Shown in pieces: positions 2,566 through 55,380 of a stretch of 64,000 bases of DNA. Every line of letters begins with the position of its first letter. Positions within the stretch are counted from its first letter, which is position 1. A program made the position numbers and the translations under genes. Origin of the DNA: a virus; IMG/VR virus record IMGVR_UViG_3300032093_000074, positions 15,214-79,213 of that record, one strand, 5' to 3'. The notes beneath the pieces were generated by a model that had not been told where the DNA came from, did no database searches, and saw only the letters and a program-made list of their open reading frames with translations.

Positions 2566-2611
2566 TCTTTACCCCTTCATTATGTTCAACCCCCCCGCCC
2601 CATGCGGGGAG

Positions 2612-2659
2612 GTAGCGGACGGCGGGGGAATCGAACCCCCGCAAGGCACCTGCCCGCCC
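2612..2659 (-). ncRNA. anticodon-less tRNA-like element 2
   Basis: Minus strand GGGCGG / GCAGGTGC / CTTG / CGGGGG-TTCGATT-CCCCCG / CCGTCC-GCTAC; same 3' tail as element 1. Confidence 0.7.
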
Positions 2660-2665
2660 CACCTT

Positions 2666-3540: not shown

Positions 3541-4197
3541 GGGGGAAATAGCAAATATTCCCCACCCCAAAAACCAGGATTTTGCCCCCCAAGATTCGAA
3601 CCCCCCACCCTCCCGCACCCCCACCTGCCTGCCTTCCCACCTTGTAGGCGCACCTTCCCGAAACATACGCACCCCCTCCGCCGGTACCTTTCTGATTGTT
3701 GCCGTCCCCGTGTCCCCCGCTACCTGTGCCCGCCTGCCTTTTGTTTCGGACCCGCCCTGCCTGTCCCCGTTGCCTGTCTGCCGGAGCGCTCGGGCTGCAC
3801 ACGCAACCGGCCAAGTGCCGAGGCACCCCCCTGCCAATATACTTATTATCGGTTCTGTATGTGTTCACACTAGGTTTGGTATCAACGAAGTTGATACCCT
3901 GGGGGGTTTGTGGTTGGTTTTGTGGTGTTGTATTGCTTGGTCGAGTTTGTATTAGTGGGTTTTGTATTAGCTTGCGGGCGTGACGGCTGTCACGTGGTTG
4001 GGTGGCCGGGGTGTCGAACATGCGGCTTATTGGCAGAAAAAGAAAAAGTTGCCAAAAAGAAAAAGGTTGTATCCGACCCGGCGTTGTCGGCCAGCCTGCT
4101 TTGTTGCATCCTGGTAGCAACCGAGCTTGCGAGGGCGGTAGCCAGCGGCATTCATGCTGTTCGGCTTGCGTCTTGCCCGCTGGAACAGCAGACAGGC

Positions 4198-4463
4198 TTC
4201 TGCTCCCCCCACGCTTCGACACTCTTTTGAGAGCATCCGGTGGCCGTTAGCTATCTTCAAGCCGACACCGTACAAATCCTTTTTCTCCCCCTCGACGTAT
4301 CTGTTGCGCTACCGTTCTATGTCTCGGTACTAGGTTCTTCAACAGGCGTTTTTTGCATGGGAGGGCGGTCCCCGTTTCCGGCCATATACACCCTTCCCAC
4401 CTCCATGCTCTGCGATGGGGTCCGGGTCATGCTTGCCCTGTCGCTTCCCAGCGAGGGGGACTT
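4198..4463 (-). ncRNA. candidate structured ncRNA, copy A (homologue at 50592-50851)
   Basis: Colinear conserved blocks with the B copy (41-nt identity 4354-4394 = 50740-50780), covarying stems, G.U pairs and a GAAA tetraloop that favour the minus strand. Confidence 0.75.
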
Positions 4464-4536
4464 ACTCGATTAGATGACCGACACTTGAGACGTAAGCCAG
4501 ATGGCTGTCACAGAGGTGCCGGTCGTACCGACATTG

Positions 4537-4567
4537 ATAGTAGCAGAACCGTATGGTATGTTGTCAA
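4537..4567 (-). promoter_or_regulatory. promoter reading into ncRNA copy A
   Basis: TTGACA-19-TACTAT with TGn extended -10; spacer is long. Confidence 0.55.
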
Positions 4568-4573
4568 CTACAC

Positions 4574-6550
4574 ATGGGGACTAGACGGATAGTTTCAGAC
4601 GCAGACAAAGCCCGCTACTGGGCTGCACGACAGTCCGGCATGTCACAGAAAGATGCCTCCAGAATCGCAGGCATCCACTTCAACACCGCCTCCAACTGGG
4701 AAAAGAAACGCTCCGAAACAAAAGCAGCTCTAGAACTAGCACAAGTTGAAGGGAAACAACACCGCAAAAATCAGGGTGGGAACCAAAACGATTCAATGAA
4801 ACTGTTGGCAGACTCACTCGAACTGCCCCCAGCTATACCCCACGACCGGCTCTGCCCCGAAGCAAAACGAGGGTTGGAGGACTTCGACTTTTTCAGAACC
4901 TACTATTTGGGGCGTGTCCCATCCCCTTGGCAGGTTGAAGCCGCATACAAGATTGTTCAATATCTAGAATCCCCTGAGAAAGAGTTTTTGGTGCTGAACG
5001 TCGCACCAGGCGCAGGCAAATCCACCCTATTCCACGATGTTGCTGTGTGGTGCATCGTCCGAAACCGTGCGATTCGAGTCCTCTACGGCTCTATCTCCCA
5101 AAACCTTGCGAAAATGTATTCAAGACGTATCCGAGACACGTTGGAACGCCCAACAGCTTTGGAACCCGACCCCGAACTGGTGAAGAAGGGGCTGGCAGTC
5201 AACGCTAAAGGCTGCCTATCTCTTGACTATGGCAGGTTCAAACCGGCATCGACAGGTGCTTTGTGGAGGGCAGATGAGTTCATTGTGGAACAGGACATTG
5301 TGGGCAACCTTGACAACAAGGAACCGACAGTCCGAGCGTACGGTATTGACGCCGAGTTCATCGGTCACCGAGCAGATTTGTGTCTTTTCGATGACGTTGC
5401 CTCTACAGAGAACGCCCGAGAATCAACTGCCCGAGACAAACTGTTGGAACGTTGGGATTCGATGGCGGAAGCCCGAGTTGACCCAGGCGGTCTGCTTGCC
5501 GTCATCGGACAGCGGTTGGGGCCGGGCGACCTGTACGCACATTGCCTATCTAAAGTCACATATGATGACGACGACTACGAATATGATGGTTCAGACGTAG
5601 AAAACCCGGAGGATATCCGTGCGGAACCCACTAAAAGGTCCAAATATCATCACATCATCTATCAGGCGTATTACCCCGAGCTTGATACGGGCAAAGAATC
5701 TCGTAGTGTTTCTGCCCTACCGTTTCCGAAAGGACCCCTTCTAGACCCTGTACGTCTTTCTTGGAAAGATTTGTCGTACATCAAATACTCTAACCCCACC
5801 ACTTTCAGGGTTGTGTACCAGCAGGAGGATGCGGCTGACGAATCCTATTTGGTGACACGCACCATGCTGACCGGTGGGATGGGCGACGACGGGGTTCTCT
5901 ACCAGGGCTGTATCGACAATGACCGGATGCCGGGGCAAATACCGTACGGGTTGGCCCCCCCGATTATTTCTATTGTCTCAGTAGACCCGTCACCCACCCA
6001 GTTTTGGGCTTTGACATGGATGCTGTACCAGCCTGACACCAACCTGTACCACATCATCGACGTTGAACGAACCAAACTGACTGCTGAAGGATTGTTGGGG
6101 TTCAACACAACCACCGGTGTGTATAGCGGGATGATGGAGGAATGGCAGAACCGGTCATGGTCTTTGGGGTATCCGATATCGCATTGGGTGGTGGAAATCA
6201 ACGCCGCCCAGCGGTTCCTGCTCGCCCACGACTTCATCCGCAAATGGCAGTCTTTGCATGGGGTGAACGTGGTCCCGCACACCACTTCTAGAAACAAGCT
6301 TGACGAAAACCTAGGTGTGGAGGCTCTGCTCCCCCCGTTGGTGCGTACCGGCGCTATGCGGTTCCCGTCGATGCGGGGCAACTGGAAGACGATGGCTGCG
6401 GTTGACGAACTATGCAAGTGGACCCGTGACAAAAAGAACGGCACCGACATTGTGATGAGTCTTTGGATGGGTGTACTCAACCTGCCGAACCTGACCCAAA
6501 CGAAGGCTCCGCCCCGTCTGTGGCGTCCGTCGTGGATGCTTGAACGCTGA
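4574..6550 (+). CDS. terminase large subunit with N-terminal HTH (phage A)
   Basis: Walker A APGAGKST, Walker B LCLFDD, nuclease VSVDPS and C-terminal DIVM; directly upstream of portal. Confidence 0.9.
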   Translation: MGTRRIVSDADKARYWAARQSGMSQKDASRIAGIHFNTASNWEKKRSETKAALELAQVEGKQHRKNQGGNQNDSMKLLADSLELPPAIPHDRLCPEAKRGLEDFDFFRTYYLGRVPSPWQVEAAYKIVQYLESPEKEFLVLNVAPGAGKSTLFHDVAVWCIVRNRAIRVLYGSISQNLAKMYSRRIRDTLERPTALEPDPELVKKGLAVNAKGCLSLDYGRFKPASTGALWRADEFIVEQDIVGNLDNKEPTVRAYGIDAEFIGHRADLCLFDDVASTENARESTARDKLLERWDSMAEARVDPGGLLAVIGQRLGPGDLYAHCLSKVTYDDDDYEYDGSDVENPEDIRAEPTKRSKYHHIIYQAYYPELDTGKESRSVSALPFPKGPLLDPVRLSWKDLSYIKYSNPTTFRVVYQQEDAADESYLVTRTMLTGGMGDDGVLYQGCIDNDRMPGQIPYGLAPPIISIVSVDPSPTQFWALTWMLYQPDTNLYHIIDVERTKLTAEGLLGFNTTTGVYSGMMEEWQNRSWSLGYPISHWVVEINAAQRFLLAHDFIRKWQSLHGVNVVPHTTSRNKLDENLGVEALLPPLVRTGAMRFPSMRGNWKTMAAVDELCKWTRDKKNGTDIVMSLWMGVLNLPNLTQTKAPPRLWRPSWMLER

Positions 6551-14778: not shown

Positions 14779-15803
14779 GCGATACAGGACCGGCACTTGA
14801 CCCCCGTGAACAGATGCTTGTTTCCCAAGCAGATAAAACAGCCCAAGAAAAATCTTCTCGGGATGCTGCGGCTCGGCAAAAAAAGGAGGCTGAAGCCGCC
14901 AAAAAAGCCGAGACAGAGAAACGCCGGAAGGCTCGCCAAACCGCCCAGCAGGAACGCCAAGCCGCCAAAACCGCTCGATGGGAACAAACCTTCCAAACCC
15001 AATATCCGCAGTATGCGTGGATGTTCACCGAGTTGGACCGCACCAAATATGCTGACGTATTCAACCTTTTCAACAAGGCTGTAGACCCGAAGACAGGTTA
15101 CACGGCGGACCGTTTCCAAACAGAGTTCGCAGCGACATCCTGGTACCGTGAAATCCAGTCGTCCAACAAGATTCAAGAAATCCGTGACACAGTTGGGACA
15201 CTCGACTGGGACGCTGGGAGCCTCTCCAAGTTTGTGACCCGTGCAGTCGGCCAAGGCTGGTCCGGCGACCAACTCGGGCAGGAAGCCTATAAAGAGATTT
15301 TTGCTAAAGGACTCAACAACCAGTACATCAACCAAAAAGCGGTTGAACAGATTCGCAAAACCGCACCGTATCTGCGTTACCAAAACGCCGCTAAATCGTA
15401 TTTTACGACACTCCCCGAAGACAAGATTCAACGTGTCCTCACCGGGGCTTTGACTGAGGAAGACGTTCTTGCCAGTCTGCGTGAATCAACAAAACTGAAA
15501 TACAGCCATCTGTCGGCGGCTATCGACGCCGGTCAAACCTTGGAAGATTTGTCTGCTGACTACAAGAAGACTGCGGCAGGATTGTTGGAACGCAACGAAA
15601 ACGACATTGACATGACCAGCCCCGATTTTGAGGTTGCGCTCGCCTACACGGATGGTTCCACTAAGCGCATGTTGACAACCGGCGAATGGGCAAAACTGTT
15701 GAGAACAGACAAAAGGTATGGTTGGGAACGTACCGAGCAGGCCCGTGAAATCGGGTCACGCATCGCCACCAATATTGTTCAGCAGTTCCAGAGAGGATTC
15801 TGA
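14775..15803 (+). CDS. putative internal virion protein
   Basis: ATGA coupling; helical composition. Confidence 0.6.
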   Translation: MSDTGPALDPREQMLVSQADKTAQEKSSRDAAARQKKEAEAAKKAETEKRRKARQTAQQERQAAKTARWEQTFQTQYPQYAWMFTELDRTKYADVFNLFNKAVDPKTGYTADRFQTEFAATSWYREIQSSNKIQEIRDTVGTLDWDAGSLSKFVTRAVGQGWSGDQLGQEAYKEIFAKGLNNQYINQKAVEQIRKTAPYLRYQNAAKSYFTTLPEDKIQRVLTGALTEEDVLASLRESTKLKYSHLSAAIDAGQTLEDLSADYKKTAAGLLERNENDIDMTSPDFEVALAYTDGSTKRMLTTGEWAKLLRTDKRYGWERTEQAREIGSRIATNIVQQFQRGF

Positions 15804-49754: not shown

Positions 49755-49987
49755 ACCGCGCCCAGGCCCTCCAGGCCCTCGACGTGGCCCGCCTCCACCT
49801 CGACGGAATCGAACTAGACTTAGCAACACTCGTCGACCTAGTGAACCTGTCGGACCTCATGAAGACACCGGCCGCCACCCTCGACGAAGCACACCGCAGC
49901 CGCCTCGAAGCCATCGAGCGGGACCTAGCGGCAGCCCTCGACGCCACCAGGGAGGCCCGCACCAACCTCGACCAGGGCGAGCACTAA
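49751..49987 (+). CDS. hypothetical early protein
   Basis: GTGA coupling. Confidence 0.6.
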   Translation: MNRAQALQALDVARLHLDGIELDLATLVDLVNLSDLMKTPAATLDEAHRSRLEAIERDLAAALDATREARTNLDQGEH

Positions 49988-50591
49988 CCCAACCCGCCAG
50001 GCCCGCACCAGGGCAACACACCACGAAGGCCCCGCACCAGGAGAAACACCAGGCGCGGGGCCTTCCCCATTCCCGCCGCCACCTCGACAAGCGCCACCAG
50101 CGCCACCAGGCCGCCACCACAAAACACGCCAGGCCGGCACCCGCCGAAATAATCGAGCGGCCGCACAGTGTGAGCCACTTGGGCCCAGGTCGACGCCGGC
50201 CCGCTTTGCCCTGGCCTCCCCCGCCCACGCTCGACGCACCCGCCGGCCGCAGGAAGGAGAGGCACCCCACTCGACGGCCAGCCCGTGCCCGCACCCGCCC
50301 GCCGCGCGCCACCCCCCTCCCCATGGGGGGACCCCGTGGGGTACGTTGTATTACATCCTCCCGTACGTTTGGGTTGTAATTTTTTGGCCCTTGACTAGAT
50401 GCCCTGTGATGGTATTGCATCATGTTTGTTTTGCTCTTGAGGTGAGGGGTTGCCCAGGTTGTTTGGGGGTACTTGGGTGTGTTCGTTGCAGGTGTGCCCT
50501 CGATGCTTGTCAGCAAGGCCTTTGGGCCGCGCTAGCCCAACGAGCCGTAGGCGAGGCGGGAGTGTCCACGTCTCGTTCCTGTGACCCAGAT

Positions 50592-50851
50592 TTCTTGCTC
50601 CCCCCACGCTTTGACAGTCAAGCTGTCAGGTGGCCGTGGCATTTTTAGCCGACACCTGTTTGTTTCTTCTTTTACCCCTCGACGTATCTACCTGGGGGTC
50701 GTTCTTTGTCTCGTTACTAGACCTGCCAGGAGGCGTTTGTGCATGGGAGGGCGGTCCCCGTTTCCGGCCATATACACCCTCCTGCTTCCATGCTCTTTAT
50801 CGCAGGGTTCGGGTCGTGGGTGCCCCAGCTGCTTCCCAGCGCGGGGGACTT
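50592..50851 (-). ncRNA. candidate structured ncRNA, copy B (homologue at 4198-4463)
   Basis: Colinear with copy A; minus-strand 5' CCCCCGCGCT can pair with 3' AGCGTGGGGG. Confidence 0.75.
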
Positions 50852-50866
50852 GATCGGTTGGCCGCC

Positions 50867-50895
50867 ACTCTATAGGTGGGGTGTCTGTTTGTCAA
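50867..50895 (-). promoter_or_regulatory. promoter reading into ncRNA copy B
   Basis: TTGACA-17-TAGAGT on minus strand. Confidence 0.7.
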
Positions 50896-50945
50896 CCATA
50901 TTTTTGATTGCACCAATATGACAATGTGATGCTAACATAAAGTGT

Positions 50946-51221
50946 ATGGAAACTGAGAAGGTTGTTCCCCACGGGACATTGTACGGATACGCCGGTTTTG
51001 ACTGCCGATGCCAAGACTGCAAAGACGCGTCACGGGAATATGCACGGAAGTACCGATCAACGGCCTCCGGCCGCCAAGCATCAAGACGGTCAGCTTCCCG
51101 CAACAACTATGTACGCCAAGCTTCCCTCGCCTGGGTGCGGGCCAACCACCCCGAAGTGGTCGACATGTTCGTTGTTGAATGGGAAGAAAAAACTAGACAA
51201 CCCAACACAGATATGCAATAA
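50946..51221 (+). CDS. small Zn-binding protein
   Basis: HGT..GY....CRC..C motif frequent in actinophages. Confidence 0.7.
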   Translation: METEKVVPHGTLYGYAGFDCRCQDCKDASREYARKYRSTASGRQASRRSASRNNYVRQASLAWVRANHPEVVDMFVVEWEEKTRQPNTDMQ

Positions 51222-51805: not shown

Positions 51806-52146
51806 GTGACCAGCCGATGTTGTGGGCCGAAGAACGATCCCGCTACTACAAAGCCCCCGAAAAGATGACCCGATGGTCCGACCCCGCGACCAGTTACGAA
51901 GCCGCCGCGTCCGTTGACCTCACCAAAGGCCAAAAAATCGTGATGCTTGCGTTCCGCAGCAAACGATCCATGACCGACGACGAGCTCATCGCCCAAGTCG
52001 CCCGCCTAGGGCTCAAACTGTCACCCTCCGGGTGCCGAAGCCGCCGCAAAGAACTGGTCGAAATGGGCCTGATCCGCGATTCCGGCGTCAAAGAACAAAC
52101 AGCAAGCCACAGATCCACAATAGTTTGGGAGATTGTCCAGCAATGA
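51802..52146 (+). CDS. winged-helix DNA-binding protein
   Basis: DPATSYEAA...TDDEL...SRRKELVEMGLIRDSG...VW. Confidence 0.75.
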   Translation: MSDQPMLWAEERSRYYKAPEKMTRWSDPATSYEAAASVDLTKGQKIVMLAFRSKRSMTDDELIAQVARLGLKLSPSGCRSRRKELVEMGLIRDSGVKEQTASHRSTIVWEIVQQ

Positions 52147-52532
52147 ACACCATTCACATCAACGGAAACCTCGGGAAAGACCCCGAACTGAAGTACAACA
52201 GCGCCGGAAACGCCATCTGCAAGCTGTCCGTAGCATCCCGATACAAGCCAAAAAGCGGAGAAGAAGAAACAACCTGGTTTACCGTCATCGCGTTCGGTGA
52301 TCTCGCCGAACATGTCGCCGAAAGCCTCAGCTCAGGCCTCCGAGTGTCCGTTTCGGGCCGGTTCCGTAAGCAAAAATGGGAGAAAAAAGATGGCACAATG
52401 GGGTACAGCGACGAAGTTATTGCCCAAGACATCTCCGTCGATCTCCGTTTCCAGACCGTTGAGGTACAAAAAGGCGGTCGCCCAGCACCAAAGCAGGCCC
52501 AAGCAGCATATGTCGACGAGGAACCCTTCTGA
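52143..52532 (+). CDS. ssb: single-stranded DNA-binding protein
   Basis: GNLGKDPELKY...TTWF..IAFGDLAE; acidic tail DEEPF. Confidence 0.95.
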   Translation: MNTIHINGNLGKDPELKYNSAGNAICKLSVASRYKPKSGEEETTWFTVIAFGDLAEHVAESLSSGLRVSVSGRFRKQKWEKKDGTMGYSDEVIAQDISVDLRFQTVEVQKGGRPAPKQAQAAYVDEEPF

Positions 52533-53293: not shown

Positions 53294-53782
53294 ATGAGCG
53301 ATCACGAACAAGGCAGCGACTACCCGATTCCAGTCAACGAAATGGTTGCGTCGTACGAGTTCACGAAGGATGACAAGCCCAAAACCCGCAAAAAGGGCCG
53401 CCAAGAAGGCAAAGACCTGACTGTTGTGGACTCTAGCGAATATCGAGTACGGCAAGACCAGATCGCCAAACTTGGCCTGTCCAAGGTCATCAAAGGCATC
53501 GAACGCGACCAGCTGCCCGAGATCGCCCTGTCAATCATCGCAGATCACGGTTTGCGGGTCCTCGGCGGCGAATGGGAAGTCCGTACCGCTGAAGAAGCCA
53601 CCAAAATCGGCAAAGTCTGGCATGACATCTTCCGACTAGAAATGGGCGAACCGACCAGCATTTCGTCAAGCCAGGACTCGGAAAGCCCCGAGCAGCGCAA
53701 AACCCGCTTTGAGGAACTGAAACTCGAAGCGAAACGCCGTACCGAAGGCAACTTGCGGGCCATCGCCGGCGACGCCGGATGA
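53294..53782 (+). CDS. putative terminase small subunit (B)
   Basis: GGAGGT RBS; coupled directly to TerL. Confidence 0.6.
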   Translation: MSDHEQGSDYPIPVNEMVASYEFTKDDKPKTRKKGRQEGKDLTVVDSSEYRVRQDQIAKLGLSKVIKGIERDQLPEIALSIIADHGLRVLGGEWEVRTAEEATKIGKVWHDIFRLEMGEPTSISSSQDSESPEQRKTRFEELKLEAKRRTEGNLRAIAGDAG

Positions 53783-55380
53783 GCCAAGCAGTAGAGAAAA
53801 GCTTTCTCCTTACCGACAAGGAGTTCGCTTCACTGTCGGCAAGTGAACAGGCCGAATACCTTGAGCTCCTTGAAGAAGACCTCACTGCCTGGTCGTTGGC
53901 CGGCAACGAACGCCAATCCCGCGCCAACATCCTGCTCGGCAAAGTGGACTGGCTCCTGTACGGCGGTGCTGCTGGTGGAGGCAAATCTGAGCTGATTACC
54001 TACCACGCCCACGAACTGTCCATGAAATACCCGGGGCATCGCAGCCTTCTGATCCGAACGTCGCTCCCCGAGCTGCGCCGATCCCTGATTATCCGCACCC
54101 AGGTGCGGTACGCCCAGCTGAAAGCCAAAGCCCAGCTCCGGTCGATTGACAACATGAAGGCCTGGTGGTACGAAAACGGCTCGATCATCGAGTACGGCTA
54201 CTGCTCCCGCGACGAAGATGTCAGCCAGTTCATGTCAGCCGAATATGACTTTATTGCTTTTGACGAAGCGACCCAATTCTCGGCCTACCAAATGCTCATG
54301 ATCTCGGGCCGTCTGCGTACCAGCCGGAAACAGGCCGCCGCAGGAGTCCGAACCCACGTCATGTTCGCCACCAACCCAGGCGACAAAGGCCACCAGTTCC
54401 TCTACCAGATGCTTGTTACACCCACCCACTATGGTAAGAACGCGATTGTCTACGATGTCAGCAATGGCTTTGAAACCCCGGATATTGTCAGCGTTGTACC
54501 GCTGCCTGACGATCTTGACGAGCTGGCCGCCGTCGAAATCCCCCACGACCCCGACAACCACCTTGTCGTCGCGTTCGTGCCGTCAACCGTCATTGACAAC
54601 CCATTTATCGACCCGACGTACCGGAAACACCTTTCCATGCTGCCGGAGATCGAACGCCGGCAAAAGCTTCTAGGCGACTGGGATACGTTCACCGGCCAGT
54701 ATTTCAACGAGTTTGACCGTGGTATTCACGTCATAGAACCGTTCGCTATCCCCGCGACATGGCAACGCTACAGGGCAATCGACTTCGGTACAGCCAACCC
54801 GTTTTGCTGCCTGTGGGGTGCTTTAGACCCCTCAGACGGCACAATGTACATTTATCGCGAGGCCTACCAAAAGAACCTCACGACGGCCGAACAGGCCCGC
54901 CTAGTGAAGTCAATGAGCGTTGACGAGCACGGCAAAGGCGAAAGTATCTCCGTCACAGTCATTGACCCGTCCACGTTCTCCAACGTCGCCGGTTTGGGCA
55001 CCACGGTCGCAGCCCAATACAACACCCAAGGTGTCACCGTCACCCGCGCCAAAAACACCCGCATCGGCGGCTGGCAGAACGTCCGGCGCTACATGATGGC
55101 TCACCCCGTCGACGGTGTTGTCCGGCTCAAGATTTTCAACAACTGCCAGAACCTGATCCGCACCATGCCCCTTATGCGGCACGATCAAAGAAACCCTGAG
55201 GATTTGGACAGCCGCGACGAAGACCACGCCGTGGACGCGCTACGCTACTTGTTAGGGTGTAGACCATACGAACTCTCTAAACGCGACAAGAAACAGTACG
55301 CACCAGGCGCTGAAGGCCGCGTCCAAAAGTTCATGGAAAAGCTCGACAAGCAATCAAAACGAAAAAATATATGGAGGTAA
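53779..55380 (+). CDS. terminase large subunit (B)
   Basis: YGGAAGGGKS, FDEATQF, ATNPG, AIDFG, DHAVDALRY. Confidence 0.95.
   Translation: MSQAVEKSFLLTDKEFASLSASEQAEYLELLEEDLTAWSLAGNERQSRANILLGKVDWLLYGGAAGGGKSELITYHAHELSMKYPGHRSLLIRTSLPELRRSLIIRTQVRYAQLKAKAQLRSIDNMKAWWYENGSIIEYGYCSRDEDVSQFMSAEYDFIAFDEATQFSAYQMLMISGRLRTSRKQAAAGVRTHVMFATNPGDKGHQFLYQMLVTPTHYGKNAIVYDVSNGFETPDIVSVVPLPDDLDELAAVEIPHDPDNHLVVAFVPSTVIDNPFIDPTYRKHLSMLPEIERRQKLLGDWDTFTGQYFNEFDRGIHVIEPFAIPATWQRYRAIDFGTANPFCCLWGALDPSDGTMYIYREAYQKNLTTAEQARLVKSMSVDEHGKGESISVTVIDPSTFSNVAGLGTTVAAQYNTQGVTVTRAKNTRIGGWQNVRRYMMAHPVDGVVRLKIFNNCQNLIRTMPLMRHDQRNPEDLDSRDEDHAVDALRYLLGCRPYELSKRDKKQYAPGAEGRVQKFMEKLDKQSKRKNIWR

Follow-up and report, generated by a model that had tools for sequence, protein, structure and literature searches.

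A conserved stretch of non-coding DNA, present in two related copies in a single viral record, raises the question of whether it encodes an RNA and what such an RNA would do for the phages that carry it. The record is a 79,213-bp IMG/VR entry (IMGVR_UViG_3300032093_000074), and the window analysed here is its 64,000-nt stretch from base 15214 to base 79213; all coordinates below are positions in this window. The record fits two phage genomes, because it holds two different large terminase (TerL) genes, because the RNA motif occurs twice (compared with once in each of 24 related records), and because Logan contigs branch at a 30-mer common to both copies. The genome with TerL at 4553-6550 is referred to as phage A, and that with TerL at 53779-55380 as phage B. 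An earlier note on this DNA had proposed that the conserved RNA is a replication primer that forms an R-loop, or else a packaging RNA, aimed at an abrupt switch in strand composition. The element almost certainly encodes, on its minus strand, a large and highly structured non-coding RNA whose core measures ~270 nt and which is transcribed by host RNA polymerase from a sigma-70/sigmaA-type promoter. It is present in a single copy per phage genome, in at least 90 contigs of two lineages, and its far end is the skew switch, which coincides with a conserved, single-copy composite DNA site.

The conserved core of the RNA in phage B lies at 50596-50862 on the minus strand. Read from 5′ to 3′, it consists of the hairpin H1, a two-part stem (H2) whose loop forms a pseudoknot (H3) with a downstream strand, a GNRA hairpin (H4), and the stems H6 and H5, followed by a purine-rich linker, H7 (GGUGUCGGCU...ACGGCCACC), the variable hairpin H8, and the invariant AAGCGUGGGGGG. 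The 3′ end of the core is GCGUGGGGGGAGCA, which appears on the plus strand of phage B as TGCTCCCCCCACGC at 50596-50609. In phage A, a leader of ~50 nt and the conserved core occupy 4201-4530 on the minus strand, and end in the G-run (C6 on the plus strand, 4205-4210). The two copies share 74% identity, with perfectly kept blocks alternating with stretches that cannot be aligned; a 45-nt block is nearly identical in both (50736-50780 and 4350-4394). With its tail, the predicted transcript is roughly 400-550 nt long.

Folding of single sequences was uninformative (z-scores of -0.45 and -0.08). In a 25-sequence alignment of the subtype termed type 1, 93.1% of the cells in the 54 proposed pairs were paired, compared with 83.1% in shuffled alignments and 31-45% with slid partners. 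Both-sided changes were found in 27 of the 54 pairs, and none of 500 shuffles matched any of these measures. The pseudoknot, in which the H2 loop pairs with the strand past the GNRA hairpin, covaries in all five of its pairs, with examples such as GCAUG/CAUGC, GACAG/CUGUC, and GAUGAAUA/UAUUCAUC. Hairpin H8 was found in 64 different sequences. A second subtype, type 2, has the 3′ domain and the GNRA hairpin in common with type 1 and differs in the central domain; compensatory changes were seen in 29 of its 56 pairs. In type 1, the G-run is compatible with a pyrimidine tract within the RNA in 98% of cells and probably pairs there, although this internal pairing is unproven, because the G-run never varies. 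Two other pairings were rejected, one between CACG in the 5′ core and CGUG beside the G-run, which placed A opposite G in 9 of 25 sequences, and one between the 5′ AAGUCC and the tail past the G-run, which showed no covariation. Palindromic tetramers were noticed in loops of the RNA, by eye only.

The leftward direction of transcription, which the earlier note had assumed, is supported by the promoter, the loops, and the energetics of the fold. The promoter of copy B (50867-50895, minus strand) consists of TTGACA, a 17-nt spacer, and TAGAGT, with the start expected near 50860; 10 of 12 positions match, and the scan returned two promoter-like sites, compared with 0.2 expected. In copy A, a candidate promoter (4537-4567, minus strand) was read by eye as TTGACA, a 19-nt spacer, and TACTAT, overlapping the start region of TerL. 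It was missed by the scan because the spacer is long, and its -10 context, of the CTGCTA type, agrees with that of the family. Alignments revealed a TAnnnT -10 box and a TTGaca-like -35 box in most members, spaced 16-18 nt apart. A GNRA tetraloop (GAAA, GGAA, GUAA, GGGA, or GAGA) was present in 51 of 51 sampled members, on the minus-strand reading only, and was closed by seven variants of the hairpin stem; the plus-strand complement matches no known loop motif. The RNAalifold energy of type 1 was -107.8 for the minus strand and -85.9 for the plus strand, and the proposed structure contained 117 G-U cells compared with 35 A-C cells when read on the minus strand. Insertions and deletions of 1, 2, 4, and 5 nt between copies A and B break every reading frame, which rules out a coding frame.

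The extent of the family was determined by searching IMG/VR with a 19-base, two-block pattern taken from the RNA element. The matches listed provide lower bounds, and all family counts given here refer to the members listed. The two-block pattern was present in more than 117 IMG/VR contigs among these matches; the G-run block was also found at the correct distance in at least 93 of them, representing 80 distinct sequences. The carriers are uncultured freshwater actinobacterial phages of two lineages, in at least 90 contigs. Comparison with Rfam 15 gave no family at the gathering score anywhere in the window, and a cmscan of 49900-51000 at E-values up to 10 returned just C4 and snoR121, both of which are noise. 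The tRNA/tmRNA search of the window found none, and no match to the RNA was obtained by blastn or megablast among cultured phages (INPHARED, 50,697 records). A pattern scan of a genome collection gave at least 120 matches, and none of those listed had the full motif. The RNA is thus a real family without counterpart in Rfam. A catalogue published in 2023, containing more than 10,000 candidate viral RNAs, mentions 14 that lie upstream of a putative large terminase (PMC10690425). No functional description of the family was found in the literature, and the family may have been listed computationally among the candidates of that catalogue.

The earlier note had placed the G-tract at the end of the conserved core a short distance before an abrupt change in skew, and skew profiles of both phages agreed with its coordinates and distances. 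In phage B, the GC skew ranges from -0.17 to -0.34 up to 50349 and from +0.20 to +0.40 at 50350-50499; in phage A, it ranges from -0.26 to -0.60 up to 3849 and from +0.48 to +0.63 at 3850-4049. The GC content at the switch of phage B falls from 0.77 to 0.45, and is 0.45-0.50 at both sites. The distance from the G-run to the switch is 260 nt in phage B and 355-380 nt in phage A. Relative to the G-run, the plus strand of the 80 unique members is rich in G/T between -50 and -300 and rich in C/A between -450 and -900. The switch is a trait of the family, because the same change in composition is seen across these 80 members.

The switch coincides with a newly seen feature, a composite DNA site that combines a G:C run with an AT-rich box and a lineage-specific 11-13-mer. 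Two layouts were distinguished, neither assigned to a strand. The alpha layout comprises C6...G6-ACCCC, an AT box with GTATTAC, CCCGTACGTTTGG, and A2T6GG; it is found in phage B at 50312-50388 (C6 at 50312-50317, G6 at 50325-50330, GTATTAC at 50348-50354, CCCGTACGTTTGG at 50360-50372, then A2T6GG) and in eight further members. The beta layout comprises GGGGG-TNTGCCGAGGC, a G or C run, an AT box ending in GTATTA, a gap of 17-18 nt, and TCACTCTTTTG, which is replaced by TTCACACTAGG in phage A. The site of phage A spans 3816-3874, with TGCCGAGGC at 3816-3824, C6 at 3826-3831, the AT box at 3843-3848, and TTCACACTAGG at 3864-3874. In nearly all members with enough flanking sequence, 150-450 nt separate the G-run from the composite site downstream, and the RNA is always aimed at the site. 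Each site motif occurs once in the window, and a role of TCACTCTTTTG or TTCACACTAGG as a repeated phage-polymerase promoter was rejected on this count.

Between the core and the switch, the two copies differ. The 3′ extension of copy B (50400-50595, minus strand) is G-poor as RNA; no canonical terminator was found in it, and partly kept motifs (CAAC-CGAGC...GCGGTAGCC on the plus strand) were seen in the alignment. In copy A, a hairpin (-10.2 kcal/mol, called together with a U tract) and the two CUUUUUCUUUUU tracts that follow it occupy 4028-4100 on the minus strand, with A5GA5G repeats on the plus strand. This is the probable 3′ end of RNA A, ~143 nt beyond the G-run and ~200 nt before the switch. 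The A5GA5G motif occurs twice at 4028-4062 on the plus strand, 4-7 nt apart, and has the same place in many loci (L003, L041, L053, L064, L085). It is kept as a sequence motif, which sets it apart from a mere U-rich terminator tail, and it could bind a protein or bend the DNA between the RNA and the composite site. Nine-mers resembling DnaA boxes (TTGTCCACA, with at most one mismatch) were found at 1.00 per kb in the 500 nt past the G-run, compared with 0.23 per kb elsewhere, with a count of 31 in the bin from -250 to 0. Pairs of exact or near-exact actinobacterial DnaA-box 9-mers, separated by 9-50 nt and on either strand, lie 60-170 nt past the G-run in five loci (L018, L056, L086, L073, L009).

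The RNA and its site are closely linked to the terminase gene. TerL lies downstream within 0.25-4 kb in 65 of the 66 members with enough flanking sequence, often directly adjacent and divergent. The rightward operon to which it belongs is always found on the side of the RNA opposite the composite site. The A-type TerL is T7-like, and the B-type TerL belongs to the PBSX family; rough subtypes of the RNA were found with both terminase types. The A-type protein (4553-6550 in phage A, with homologues in more than 50 loci) is 655-666 residues long, and has ~100 extra N-terminal residues with a weak HTH_3 match at residues 27-56. No small-terminase gene was found beside the A-type TerL, and no such open reading frame lies between the RNA and TerL in phage A. 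The N-terminal extension may be a fused DNA-recognition domain. In phage B, 2.9 kb of early-type small genes (helix-turn-helix, SSB, WhiB-domain) separate the RNA from TerL; SSB is encoded among them at 52143-52436 (Pfam E-value 2e-25), between the RNA and WhiB/TerL.

The replication genes of these phages were surveyed in 25 records, 15 of which are at least 90% complete. None of the 25 contained DNA_pol_A, DNA_pol_B, DnaB_C, Prim-Pol, Toprim_2, or Phage_integrase; the accompanying fold comparison covered only part of the open reading frames of phage B. The failure of the earlier note to recognise a polymerase, primase, helicase, or integrase was therefore upheld by the absence of six families. 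Its inventory of phage B held for RecT, which occurs in 7 records, and for SSB, and failed for RusA, which was not detected. Of replication-related functions, the records showed just SSB, RecT, or a YqaJ-like exonuclease. Phage A encodes a YqaJ-like exonuclease and a clamp-like protein. ParB_N was absent from all 25 records by Pfam, and CbiA/ParA was absent from all 25 above the cut-off.

Transcription of the structured RNA toward the AT-rich site may start replication; this is the best single guess for its function, and a tentative one, with less than an even chance of being right. According to this model, the RNA and the composite site would act together in cis as a single "genome-start" module. 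DNA replication would be started, with host enzymes only, by transcribing the folded RNA toward the AT box, and no literal pairing of the RNA G-run with a template C-run, as in ColE1, would take place. The model is favoured because the geometry of RNA and site is fixed, phage replication proteins are lacking in both lineages, the AT box is common to both, and there is a precedent in mycobacteriophages. The presence of the RNA in both lineages, despite their different terminases, also fits a need common to both.

Known systems resemble this arrangement in part. Like ColE1 RNA II, the RNA would be made by the host polymerase, measure several hundred nt, depend on its fold, and carry a G-run internally, and it is aimed at an AT-rich downstream site in a replicon with no recognisable initiator. 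In ColE1, priming requires RNase H and DNA polymerase I, and copy number is set through the antisense RNA I. The two RNAs are not homologous, and the replicon here is an apparently lytic phage of 35-45 kb, whereas ColE1 is a plasmid. Moreover, the distal template C-run is inconsistent here, terminator-like signals precede the site in many members, and the downstream RNA is G-poor. No antisense partner like RNA I was seen, and no systematic search for an RNA I-like promoter was made. At T7 phiOL/phiOR and at the T4 R-loop origins oriF/oriG, a promoter faces an AT-rich stretch close to the origin or to the genome ends, and its transcription serves replication initiation and, in T7, where there is a pause at the concatemer junction, also concatemer processing. 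The present locus likewise directs a promoter toward an AT-rich stretch, and the A-type TerL is T7-like; however, the T7 and T4 transcripts are short and unstructured and depend on phage polymerases or helicase loaders, whereas here promoter and site are separated by a conserved 270-nt fold, and transcription by the host polymerase is implied. A precedent is a transcribed non-coding region that is necessary and sufficient for the replication of non-RepA parABS cluster A mycobacteriophage prophages (Wetzel et al. 2020, PMC7157519). As in the present family, a non-coding transcript of ~400-500 nt runs opposite to the flanking genes of an actinobacteriophage that has no repA. The mycobacteriophage ori RNAs, however, adjoin parABS and serve the plasmid prophage, and their deletion leaves lytic growth normal (PMC7157519), whereas the RNA described here stands beside the terminase operon, in records in which ParB and ParA are absent. 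A plasmid prophage maintained by parABS was rejected on the same Pfam result. No blastn match to the mycobacteriophage ori RNAs was obtained, and the invariant blocks of the family are absent from the ori region of Alma.

A number of observations weigh against an origin function. The 25 records represent two related lineages, so that the missing replication genes count as only one or two events. The distal run is C6 on the plus (template) strand in phages A and B, and a G-run in about two thirds of the beta sites listed, as counted by eye. A terminator-like hairpin with a U tract stands 100-145 nt past the G-run in phage A and in ~17-25 of 68 members, ahead of the site, and none was found in phage B. 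Beyond the G-run, the RNA is C/A-rich and G-poor, which disfavours stable R-loops. DnaA-box-like 9-mers with at most one mismatch are absent from phages A and B, and a conserved motif of the RNA tail supplies part of the enrichment seen across the family. No RNA run was present among the sequencing runs listed as containing the stretch. Alpha sites accompany the PBSX-type (B-type) TerL in 6 of 6 cases, beta sites accompany the T7-type (A-type) TerL in 37 of 38, and no member combines them the other way round. Finally, the near-invariance of the single-stranded blocks across phages suggests a conserved partner, which a primer would not obviously need. The R-loop primer hypothesis thus survived in part. 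A promoter-driven, leftward, structured RNA aimed at a functional site in genomes lacking recognisable replication genes stands, and the literal ColE1 mechanism does not, given that the distal run lies on either strand, signals resembling terminators come before the site, the tail contains little G, and internal pairing of the G-run is probable.

The conserved blocks lend themselves to a different explanation, in which the RNA acts in trans on the host, as a decoy or inhibitor of a host machine or defence, or self-assembles like the "ornate" RNAs ROOL and GOLLD; host RNA polymerase would produce it before other transcripts, and its position beside the terminus site would be incidental, a matter of the large non-coding gap where the map begins. 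GGUGUCGGCU, ACGGCCACC, AAGCGUGGGGGG, and the GNRA context are nearly invariant across phages that differ in terminase, portal, and left-hand genes, which points to a partner conserved outside the phage. No phage protein neighbour is conserved besides TerL and portal, and the strong host-type promoter and the complex fold, with its pseudoknot and tetraloop, are in keeping with such a role. GOLLD and ROOL are also large, heavily paired, phage-borne RNAs with tertiary-contact motifs that are widespread in environmental sequence (PMC12286853). They are, however, 580-800 nt long, compared with ~270-450 nt here, and this RNA, which has no Rfam match, keeps the same genomic position beside a unique DNA site. 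Rfam offered nothing similar even at E-values up to 10, a partner was not identified, and the fixed orientation toward the composite site and the constant linkage to it would be left unexplained. A host-directed function is considered unlikely, although second only to an origin. Somewhat less probable still is a role at the packaging terminus, in which the composite site would be a pac, cos, or terminal-repeat boundary, and the RNA, or the polymerase transcribing it, would help the terminase to find or process the genome end, perhaps replacing the missing small terminase in beta phages. T7 RNA polymerase transcribes toward a site at the concatemer junction. The agreement of site type and terminase type in 43 of 44 scorable members favours such a role for the site, since an origin read by the host need not track the terminase, although confounding by lineage is possible; the closeness of TerL and the lack of a small-terminase reading frame between it and the RNA in phage A point the same way. 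Contigs end 25-600 nt beyond the G-run in 15 of 93 cases, compared with 2 of 93 on the opposite side. This enrichment may be an effect of assembly, because Logan contigs end or branch at a 30-mer (50751-50780) that phages A and B have in common; one 24.9-kb contig spans 47000-54000 unbroken. Contig starts to the left of the RNA have no common end sequence, ends do not pile up in the Logan contigs from four DNA runs, and physical termini were not found. In addition, nearly one RNA serves two unrelated sets of terminase and portal, early-type genes intervene before TerL in phage B, and the promoter is of the early host type. The indifference of the RNA to terminase type argues against a partner of the kind served by the pRNA of phi29. 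Both are structured phage RNAs near a possible genome end and transcribed outward, and some of the present phages have no small-terminase gene beside TerL. In phi29-type phages, pRNA molecules pair with one another through their loops to form a ring on the portal. The resemblance ends there, as Rfam gave no pRNA match, the absence of DNA_pol_B from all 25 records leaves no protein-primed polymerase, the TerL proteins are full-size and of T7 or PBSX type, one RNA goes with two packaging machineries, and RNA sequence is strongly kept, whereas pRNAs keep fold over sequence. The packaging alternative of the earlier note fits the site, whose type tracks the terminase, and not the RNA, whose type does not and which lacks the pRNA-defining features that were tested.

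An antisense or insulating function is also conceivable, and is judged improbable. Rightward read-through into the operon of terminase and structural genes would be held back or timed by the leftward RNA, with its convergent promoter, much as by P22 sar or lambda oop/paQ. The start codons of TerL lie ~10-100 nt from the RNA promoter in many members, and because they are so near to it, the rightward promoter must sit upstream, across the RNA gene. The AT box and its fixed 17-18-nt spacing to TCACTCTTTTG resemble a rightward promoter with a leader element, and in phage B the RNA is convergent with the rightward genes that precede it. An elaborate and invariant 270-nt fold with a pseudoknot would, however, be unneeded for this purpose, the scan called no rightward promoter at the site of either phage, and the motif can be read as boxA-like only tentatively. 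A further proposal combines two functions. The RNA, made from the promoter near TerL, would stand in for the small terminase or pac-recognition factor, tethered to or hybridised with its own DNA by the composite site, and would mark the genome end for T7-type and PBSX-type terminases alike, while the same transcription would prime the first round of replication in phages without any replication proteins; this is considered very unlikely. It is scarcely credible that there is no RNA gene at all and that the locus is a DNA-level recognition region (cos, pac, or ori) with DNA hairpins, or a small protein gene. The locus is indeed non-coding, stands beside a packaging gene, contains invariant blocks, and is overlapped by mechanical open reading frames of 81-90 residues, but the strand-specific GNRA loops, the G-U excess, the covarying pseudoknot, and the dedicated promoter speak for an RNA, and the frame-breaking differences between the copies against a protein.

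If the RNA serves as an origin, it would define the first sequence- and structure-defined family of RNA-based origins for apparently lytic double-stranded DNA phages of 35-45 kb without replication proteins, and it would provide a candidate minimal replicon for freshwater Actinobacteria, for which genetic tools are few. If its role lies in packaging or is directed at the host, it would represent a new class of large phage RNA, marked by a pseudoknot, a GNRA loop, and single-stranded blocks that hardly vary. The ~80 distinct natural variants are ready material for structure work, and, whichever role applies, the RNA and its site mark a fixed point by which the "start" of these uncultured phage genomes can be set.

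The remaining features of the window lie outside the RNA and its site. The rightward gene block of phage B ends in a C/A-rich non-coding tail (49988-50311, plus strand) with a GC-rich hairpin at 50019-50071; a match to the Rfam family C4 within this tail was dismissed as noise (E-value 3.7). An early protein of phage B (46996-47658) has language-model features resembling those of actinobacterial ATPases of the MinD/ParA/CbiA type (0.94-0.95) and has no Pfam match; it is the one, divergent, MinD/ParA-like lead in phage B. Each phage also contains a giant open reading frame without a sequence match in Pfam, PHROG, or PDB, of 2322 residues in phage B (32497-39465) and 1595 residues in phage A (9209-13996). 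A phmmer search of the PDB returned nothing for the 2322-residue protein or for a 521-residue protein of phage B. Presumably, podovirus-like particles contain or eject these giant proteins; an SU10-type adaptor and a P22/SU10-type portal are present. Two direct repeats of 84 nt (1874-1957 and 2581-2664, minus strand), 74% alike, resemble the 3′ half of a tRNA (T-arm and acceptor strand), and ARAGORN calls no tRNA there. The Logan contigs that end or branch within the 45-nt block of the RNA are those of run X1. Where phages co-occur in a metagenome, conserved RNA blocks of this kind can make assemblies mis-join or break, and they may have a part in the chimeric appearance of the 79-kb record. 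DNA of phage B was found at 100% identity in the 24.9-kb contig of "fungus metagenome" samples (runs X2 and X6-X12), which may simply be where the record comes from, and in freshwater metagenomes.

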